A DNA stretch of 263 nt, from the sequence record X15718.1. One strand, 5' to 3'. Source of the DNA: a phage. Shown here piece by piece: positions 1 through 263 of this stretch. Every line of letters starts with the position of its first letter. The first letter of the stretch is position 1. The position numbers and the translations under genes were made by a program. Under the pieces are notes generated by a model. It saw only the letters and a list, made by a program, of their open reading frames with translations. It made no database searches and was not told the DNA's origin.

Positions 1-170
1 GTTCTGCTCGCGATTGTGCTACTGTTGATATTCATCCTCGTACTTCTGGTAATAATGTTTTTGTTGGTGTGATTTGTTCTAGCGCTAAATGGACCTCCGG
101 TCGTGTGATTGGTACCATCGCTACGACTCAGGTTATTCATGAATACCAAGTCCTTCAGCCGCTTAAATAA
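1..170 (+). CDS. G: Major spike protein G of a phiX174-like microvirus, C-terminal portion; 5'-partial (ORF enters from upstream, first complete codon 3-5, stop TAA 168-170)
   Basis: Seen in sequence: the frame with codons at 3-5, 6-8 ... is open from the window start to TAA 168-170 and translates to [55 protein letters not shown]. Established knowledge (from memory): phiX174 G ends ...[52 protein letters not shown]; shared blocks are DC-T-D-PRT-GNNV-VG, QVI and a terminal LQPLK*, with a one-residue length difference. Codon usage is strongly NNT-biased (36 of 55 codons end in T by my count, 21 of the first 22), which is typical of phiX-like phages. The nucleotide sequence differs from phiX174, so this is a related phage. 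No alignment software was run. Confidence 0.86.
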
Positions 171-196
171 AAGGCTGCCGCACTCCCGGTTAGATG

Positions 197-216
197 CCTG
201 CCCAGTGTAGGGCAGG
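197..216 (+). repeat. Perfect inverted repeat / stem-loop: 7-bp GC-rich stem (CCTGCCC 197-203 pairs with GGGCAGG 210-216) and 6-nt loop AGTGTA (204-209)
   Basis: Seen in sequence: GGGCAGG is the exact reverse complement of CCTGCCC. T195/A218 could add one pair across a G196/T217 mismatch, and CTCC 183-186 could pair with GGAG 220-223 as an outer helix. A CTG trinucleotide lies at 198-200 in the 5' arm. There is no T-run after the stem, so it does not look like an intrinsic terminator. Because the phage genome is single-stranded, this hairpin can form in the packaged or infecting DNA. Confidence 0.7.
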
Positions 217-248
217 TACGGAGATACCCGATAAACTAGGAACGTGGA

Positions 249-263
249 AGGCGTTAGCCGCCT
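249..263 (+). repeat. Second short stem-loop, cut by the window end: AGGCG 249-253 pairs with CGCCT 259-263, loop TTAGC 254-258
   Basis: Seen in sequence: AGGCG and CGCCT are exact reverse complements (5 bp). The stem reaches the last base of the window, so its true length is unknown. Short stems like this arise by chance fairly often in GC-rich DNA. Confidence 0.35.

Follow-up and report, generated by a model that had tools for sequence, protein, structure and literature searches.

The stretch of phage DNA analysed here (263 nucleotides, referred to in its entirety as the window) begins inside an open reading frame and continues past a stop codon into non-coding sequence. This raises the question as to which phage it comes from and whether the DNA downstream of the gene merely separates two genes or has a function of its own. 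On the + strand, frame 3 is open for 55 codons (3-167) and closes with a TAA stop codon at 168-170; its translation, a Pfam match and its identity to phage alpha3 mark these as the last codons of gene G, which encodes the major spike protein. The translated fragment matches the Phage_G profile (PF02306) with an E-value of 5.7e-11 and a score of 42.9 bits, above the curated cut-off of 25 bits, over profile positions 123-175 of 175, which correspond to the C-terminal third of the profile. The C-terminal motifs PRT.GN.V..G and LQPLK-stop are present, and in an alignment of the fragment with the G proteins of phiX174, G4, ID21 and St-1 the residues P12, R13 and T14, G16 and N17, V19, G22 and L51-K55 (LQPLK) are invariant. 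T occupies 65% of the third codon positions in the gene G frame, compared with 16% and 27% when either of the remaining frames is read. The preliminary description of this DNA had recognized the 3' end of a Bullavirinae gene G from the motifs PRT-GNNV-VG and LQPLK-stop and from an extreme third-position T bias, and on each of these points it is borne out. Within gene G, a two-copy direct repeat (GTGTGATTTGTTCTAGCGCTA at 67-87 and GTGTGATTGGTACCATCGCTA at 103-123, 81% identical and 36 nt apart) is also present and is probably due to chance.

A megablast search of 50,697 phage records returns full-length matches to Alphatrevirus phages only, headed by alpha3 itself (X60322/NC_001330 and DQ085810; E = 2e-124, 100% of the window covered), and the alignment runs through the stop codon of G into the G/H intergenic region. 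The alpha3 records NC_001330, X60322 and DQ085810 have the same reading frame, stop codon and intergenic sequence as the window: all 263 aligned bases are identical (NC_001330 4790-5060, a comparison that rests on 4% of the alpha3 genome), interrupted by a single 8-nt gap that wholly explains the shortfall in the 97% identity given by megablast. The partial alpha3 record M25640 is likewise identical to the window from base 99 onwards (165 bases), the gap excepted. In protein sequence, the fragment shares 100% of its residues with the alpha3 G protein (CDS 4396-4959 in NC_001330), 95% with that of St-1, 60% with that of ID21 and 45-48% with those of phiX174 and G4. A complete G protein is expected to measure about 175-187 aa and to be followed by gene H; the gene order around the fragment in alpha3 is F-G-H, and the window ends short of H. 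At a probability of about 0.9, the window is viral (+) strand DNA of Escherichia phage alpha3 (Microviridae, Bullavirinae, Alphatrevirus), comprising the end of gene G followed by the upstream two-thirds of the complementary-strand origin.

A near-identical match to an alpha3-like genome, spanning the stop codon of G and the sequence beyond it, had been anticipated in the preliminary description, and alpha3 provides exactly that. The same description had called the phage diverged from phiX174; the divergence is real, and the phage is, more exactly, alpha3 itself. Identity between the G fragment and its phiX174 counterpart reaches no more than 45-48%, so the window is not the standard Illumina control, as had been proposed, and phiX174 is missing from the nucleotide matches both in the window search and in a sensitive search with bases 171-263; the phiX174 sequencing control is hence ruled out as a source. 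Megablast with the whole window was run on 72,556 PLSDB plasmids and on 5,426 complete E. coli genomes, and finds no copy in either set. An exact search of the assembly collection for the 55-aa product likewise returns no record. Neither end of the window falls at a recognisable restriction site, and a permissive Rfam scan of the window yields only a chance match to IsrM (E = 8.2).

Downstream of the stop codon, 135 nt separate the end of G (4959) from the start of H (5095) in alpha3, as opposed to the 8 nt of the G/H junction in phiX174 and the 10 nt in G4; bases 171-263 of the window represent the first 93 nt of this region (101 nt in wild-type alpha3). Together with the stop codon, this part (168-263, 96 bases) is 95-97% identical to ID21, WA13 and ID62, whereas the coding part (bases 1-167) is only 64-65% identical to the same three phages; the intergenic DNA is therefore more constrained than gene G itself. 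A sensitive blastn search with bases 171-263 further detects, at 75% identity (E = 7e-8), the F/G spacer of G4-like phages (ID52, NC6 and a Shigella phage). In the annotation of G4 (NC_001420), an "RNA primer of replication" is placed at 3970-3997 and the "origin of compl. strand synthesis" at 3998, and this annotated primer/origin region and the alpha3 intergenic region align column for column. The preliminary description had treated this DNA as a downstream spacer; its location 3' of G was correct, but a mere spacer it is not, given that it is a replication origin far better conserved than the adjoining gene.

Homology to the annotated G4 origin and the literature on the origins of G4, St-1 and alpha3 lead us to assign the alpha3 G/H spacer to the primase-dependent complementary-strand origin (oric), of which the window (171-263, + strand) holds the 5' two-thirds. 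Judging from the sequence, it is a DnaG-primase-dependent origin common to alpha3-like and G4-like phages, and it probably acts as folded single-stranded viral (+) DNA. In the G4 origin, which contains three stem-loops, primase and SSB alone suffice for primer synthesis, which begins at a CTG located 3' of the stem-loops, on the T of this triplet (PMC6783573). St-1 and alpha3 possess a homologous hairpin I with a GCGTTAGC mini-hairpin (PMC13037366); the sites at which the negative strand is initiated in St-1, phiK and alpha3, and priming by DnaG and SSB alone in these three phages, were, according to PMC13037366, reported by Sims, Capon and Dressler (1979).

By analogy with the published biochemistry of G4, the following sequence of events can be proposed for alpha3. 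On entry of the single-stranded genome, SSB of the host cell would coat all of it except the region folded into stable hairpins; these hairpins would phase SSB and leave SSB-free DNA accessible to the E. coli DnaG primase, dispensing with a primosome. Primase would then synthesize the RNA primer from the CTG situated just 3' of hairpin I, starting opposite the T of that triplet, and would copy hairpin I into the primer, which DNA polymerase III would extend to yield the double-stranded replicative form. The predicted start in alpha3 lies opposite the T at NC_001330 5068, 8 nt past the window end; the CTG itself, located 7-9 nt past the last window base, is present in alpha3 and in all the relatives aligned. 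Because this CTG is absent and hairpin I lacks its last 3 nt, the origin is incomplete in the window.

Two of the stems of this origin display covariation. In wild-type alpha3, the 5' arm of hairpin III, GGCTGCC (173-179, + strand), pairs with GGCAG, a bulged A and then CC, forming a 7-bp stem. Across 12 diverse homologues, all 84 stem cells are paired (100%), with compensatory changes in two columns (CG/UA/GC and GC/AU); when the partner arm is slid by 1-3 columns as a control, pairing falls to 17-52%. In the window, the remaining part of the 3' arm (GGCAG, 211-215, + strand, identified from pairing in the homologues) leaves five of the seven pairs, the gap having removed the bulged A together with both closing C's. 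A 5-bp extension of hairpin III (GCACT/AGTGT) suggested by constrained folding was discarded, as judged by eye on the alignment, on account of mismatches in several relatives.

The 3' arm of hairpin III is also involved in a second potential fold. An inverted-repeat search and DNA folding both identify a local hairpin between CCTGCCC (197-203) and GGGCAGG (210-216) on the + strand, so that GGGCAG (210-215) may serve as the 3' arm of either the long-range stem or the local hairpin. For naked DNA, the minimum-free-energy structure combines CTGCCC/GGGCAG with two lower helices, and the folding probabilities are about 0.94 for the local hairpin versus about 0.02 for the long-range stem. In the phages, the local fold is compatible with the sequences by way of G-T wobbles; it has no compensatory changes, however, and breaks in the plasmid homologues described below (89% paired), which is why the long-range stem is taken as the conserved fold. 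On the same grounds, the three-tier local model of hairpin III derived from the minimum-free-energy structure was set aside as the conserved structure and kept as a possible alternative. The phage substitutions in the GGGCAG arm are all transitions that keep the local wobble and are compensated in the distal arm, a possible sign of two alternative folds, between which hairpin III could switch by means of the 3' arm that they have in common.

Downstream of hairpin III, a central block (TACGGAGATACCCG, 217-230, + strand) is near-invariant between alpha3-like and G4-like phages and is mostly preserved, as ACAGAGATACCCG, in the plasmid homologues. The counterpart of G4 hairpin II (GGAGA/TCTCC) is paired in only 38% of cells in the alpha3-like phages and is thus not conserved, and around 220-238 of the window only a 3-bp CGG/CCG stem is predicted in these phages. 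With no equivalent of hairpin II and only this short stem, the DNA between the conserved blocks seems to be mainly spacer, and the three-hairpin picture of G4 is not exactly transferable to alpha3. Hairpin I (246-263, + strand), the putative template of the RNA primer, is supported by covariation and by the G4 primer annotation, which spans its homologue, and is cut by the window end. It consists of a 5' arm GGAAGGCG (246-253), a loop TTAGC (254-258) and a 3' arm CGCCTTCC, of which the window retains CGCCT only (259-263; five of eight nucleotides). The GCGTTAGC mini-hairpin motif lies inside hairpin I at 251-258, and the loop expected for G4-type origins is GCGNNAGC or GCGNAGC. In the relatives for which the full length is available, the 8-bp stem is 100% paired and includes one compensatory AU<->CG pair.

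The G4 origin resembles that of alpha3 by its hairpin III (GGCCGCC.../...GGCGG-A-CC), its central TACGGAGATAC block, its 8-bp hairpin I with a mini-hairpin loop, the CTG followed by AAGCC and, by inference, the primase-plus-SSB mechanism (PMC6783573). It differs by its location at the F/G rather than the G/H site, by an overall identity of about 75%, by the presence of hairpin II (GGAGA/TCTCC), by a hairpin III that is 2 bp longer and by the loop of hairpin I, which reads GCGAAAGC in G4 and GCGTTAGC in alpha3. A further relative of G4, ID2, has a 99-nt F/G spacer (L029 181-279) that is not alignable to the G4/alpha3 origin; this spacer contains a long hairpin (CTGACAGGGGG...CCCCCTGTCAG), a mini-hairpin-like motif (GCGCAAGC) and a CTG nearby, and may be a different, shorter origin. 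In comparison, phiX174 shares with alpha3 a homologous gene G with the same C-terminal PRT-GNNV-VG and LQPLK motifs, but its 8-nt G/H spacer lacks an origin and it has no nucleotide match to the intergenic part of the window. Complementary-strand synthesis in phiX174 depends on a PriA-dependent primosome assembly site and not on primase alone.

Homologues of the alpha3/G4 origin also exist outside the Microviridae. A pattern scan of bacterial genome contigs and sensitive plasmid searches detect them at 68-83% identity over about 120 nt in five records of small, non-mobilizable E. coli plasmids (8.0-9.7 kb) from pig and sheep faeces, among them pRHB29-C22_2, pRHB34-C15_2 and CP062859/CP062904, and in an 8.8-kb contig (JAEWGQ010000432) of a metagenome-assembled genome (MAG) binned as "Actinomycetes"; the best plasmid homologue and the origin of alpha3 agree at 83% of positions along 117 nt. 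In the plasmids and the MAG contig, the homologues are located at L053 1067-1201 (- strand), L054 7009-7158 (- strand), L055 3001-3151 (+ strand) and L052 2700-2830 (- strand). They share with alpha3 the hairpin III stem, in which they add G-C/A-T compensatory changes, as well as AGAGATACCCG and CCCTCCTGCTAAGCC with its CTG; unlike alpha3, they have another GC hairpin in place of hairpin I, and these elements are best regarded as candidate origins. G4-type priming signals are known to occur on plasmids. The origin homologue and the genes occupy opposite strands, few ORFs being present where the homologue lies, and the element is found in 2 of 5,426 complete E. coli genomes, never on the chromosome. 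The one plasmid that was scanned for genes, pRHB29-C22_2, encodes an AlpA-like helix-turn-helix regulator, a small-terminase-like protein and a serine invertase, a gene content that suggests a phage-satellite-like episome; the origin-bearing plasmids may be episomes of this type. For the origin pattern, about two chance matches are expected in the 596 Gb scanned. A match in a 578-kb Latescibacterota MAG contig (L051 2641-2661) is attributed to chance, its flanks not being alignable to the origin.

Two other explanations of the window as a whole can be weighed against alpha3 DNA carrying a primase-dependent origin. One is that the DNA belongs to an alpha3-like phage newly isolated from the environment, or to a contaminant, and not to alpha3. 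Alpha3-like phages do occur in wastewater and metagenomes (Lilleven; IMG/VR contigs), so a source of this kind has precedent, but every aligned base of the window is that of alpha3, and the next closest phages are already well apart in the coding part (bases 1-167), with nucleotide identities of 94% for St-1, 92% for phiK and 89% for Lilleven. These phages evolve fast, and isolates obtained independently show many third-position differences, which also counts against a separate isolate, and this explanation is very unlikely. The other is that the region 3' of G merely keeps G and H apart, as a passive spacer, or terminates transcription between them, as its intergenic position and its GC-rich hairpins might invite one to think. 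A consensus scan of alpha3 4749-5149 nevertheless returns no terminator-like and no promoter-like site, and hairpin I is followed by CTCCTGC and not by a run of T's as in a terminator. Neither a spacer nor a terminator sits well with a conservation exceeding that of coding sequence, with compensatory changes in the stems, or with homology to an annotated G4 origin that adjoins different genes, and this explanation is scarcely credible.

The gap is the only difference between the window and alpha3, substitutions elsewhere being zero, and it requires an explanation of its own. Alignments with alpha3 and its relatives place its junction at 215..216 (+ strand), where ACCGAGCC (alpha3 5005-5012 by alignment) is absent; besides lacking ACCGAGCC, the window differs from the alpha3 origin in ending 8 nt short of the CTG predicted as the primer start. 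Of hairpin III, the missing octet takes away the bulged A and both closing C's; GAGCC makes up the rest. It is present in all three other alpha3 records (X60322/NC_001330, DQ085810 and M25640), and its columns are present in 19 of 19 relatives and invariant, one A/T position excepted; it is also mostly preserved in the plasmid homologues. The exact junction pattern is absent from IMG/VR, JGI metagenome contigs and GTDB genome contigs, and a relaxed version of it has no viral match; its 19 metagenome matches have only the 11-14 nt core of the pattern in common and are ascribed to chance. No microhomology flanks the gap. Older gel methods are prone to losing bands at GC-rich hairpins, and the gap sits in one. 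Short sequence records of the alpha3 origin probably go back to Maxam-Gilbert sequencing (Sims, Capon and Dressler, 1979); if this holds for the present record, the loss of eight bases from such a hairpin would be an error. The three-tier local model of hairpin III places its two lower 3' arms precisely on the eight deleted nucleotides, so that an explanation by gel compression would have fitted that model.

The gap is probably a record-specific error or omission or else a one-off laboratory variant, representing no natural lineage. Perfect identity elsewhere and the invariance of the lost bases make this likelier than a real loss, in which the window would derive from an alpha3 deletion variant that is viable, has only a truncated hairpin III and uses, for example, the local CCTGCCC/GGGCAGG hairpin instead. 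Such a variant is conceivable on structural grounds: five of the seven hairpin III pairs survive, the junction extends the local hairpin to 7 perfect pairs (CCTGCCC/GGGCAGG), and the folding energy of the deleted form is close to that of the wild type (-22.7 versus -23.1 kcal/mol). It has to be reconciled, however, with eight positions that are, one A/T column aside, invariant in 19 phage relatives and mostly kept in plasmids, with no second case in the viral, metagenome, genome, phage, plasmid and E. coli collections, with no substitution elsewhere that would signal an independent lineage and with no microhomology to drive the deletion, all of which makes a real loss rather unlikely. A loss that is both genuine and viable, implying that the invariant base of hairpin III (the bulged A, the two closing G-C pairs and GAGCC) is dispensable, is unlikely. 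Were it true, recognition by primase and SSB could make use of the local CCTGCCC/GGGCAGG hairpin, and the origin would possess two interchangeable folds built on one 3' arm.

With an error or a one-off variant as the preferred explanation of the gap, the meaning of the window can be stated at several levels. Its assignment to a named, long-sequenced phage and the exclusion of a phiX174 spike-in are mainly housekeeping, and both the alpha3 gene G and the G4-type primase-dependent origin are well-described entities, with nothing new in either. The gap flags a probable error in the record and, if real, would constitute a natural test of the fold that primase needs. The module carried by the plasmids, with its new compensatory changes in hairpin III, may repay further study better than the window does. 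For alpha3 and its relatives, what looks like a spacer downstream of gene G is one of the classic model origins for the recruitment of primase.
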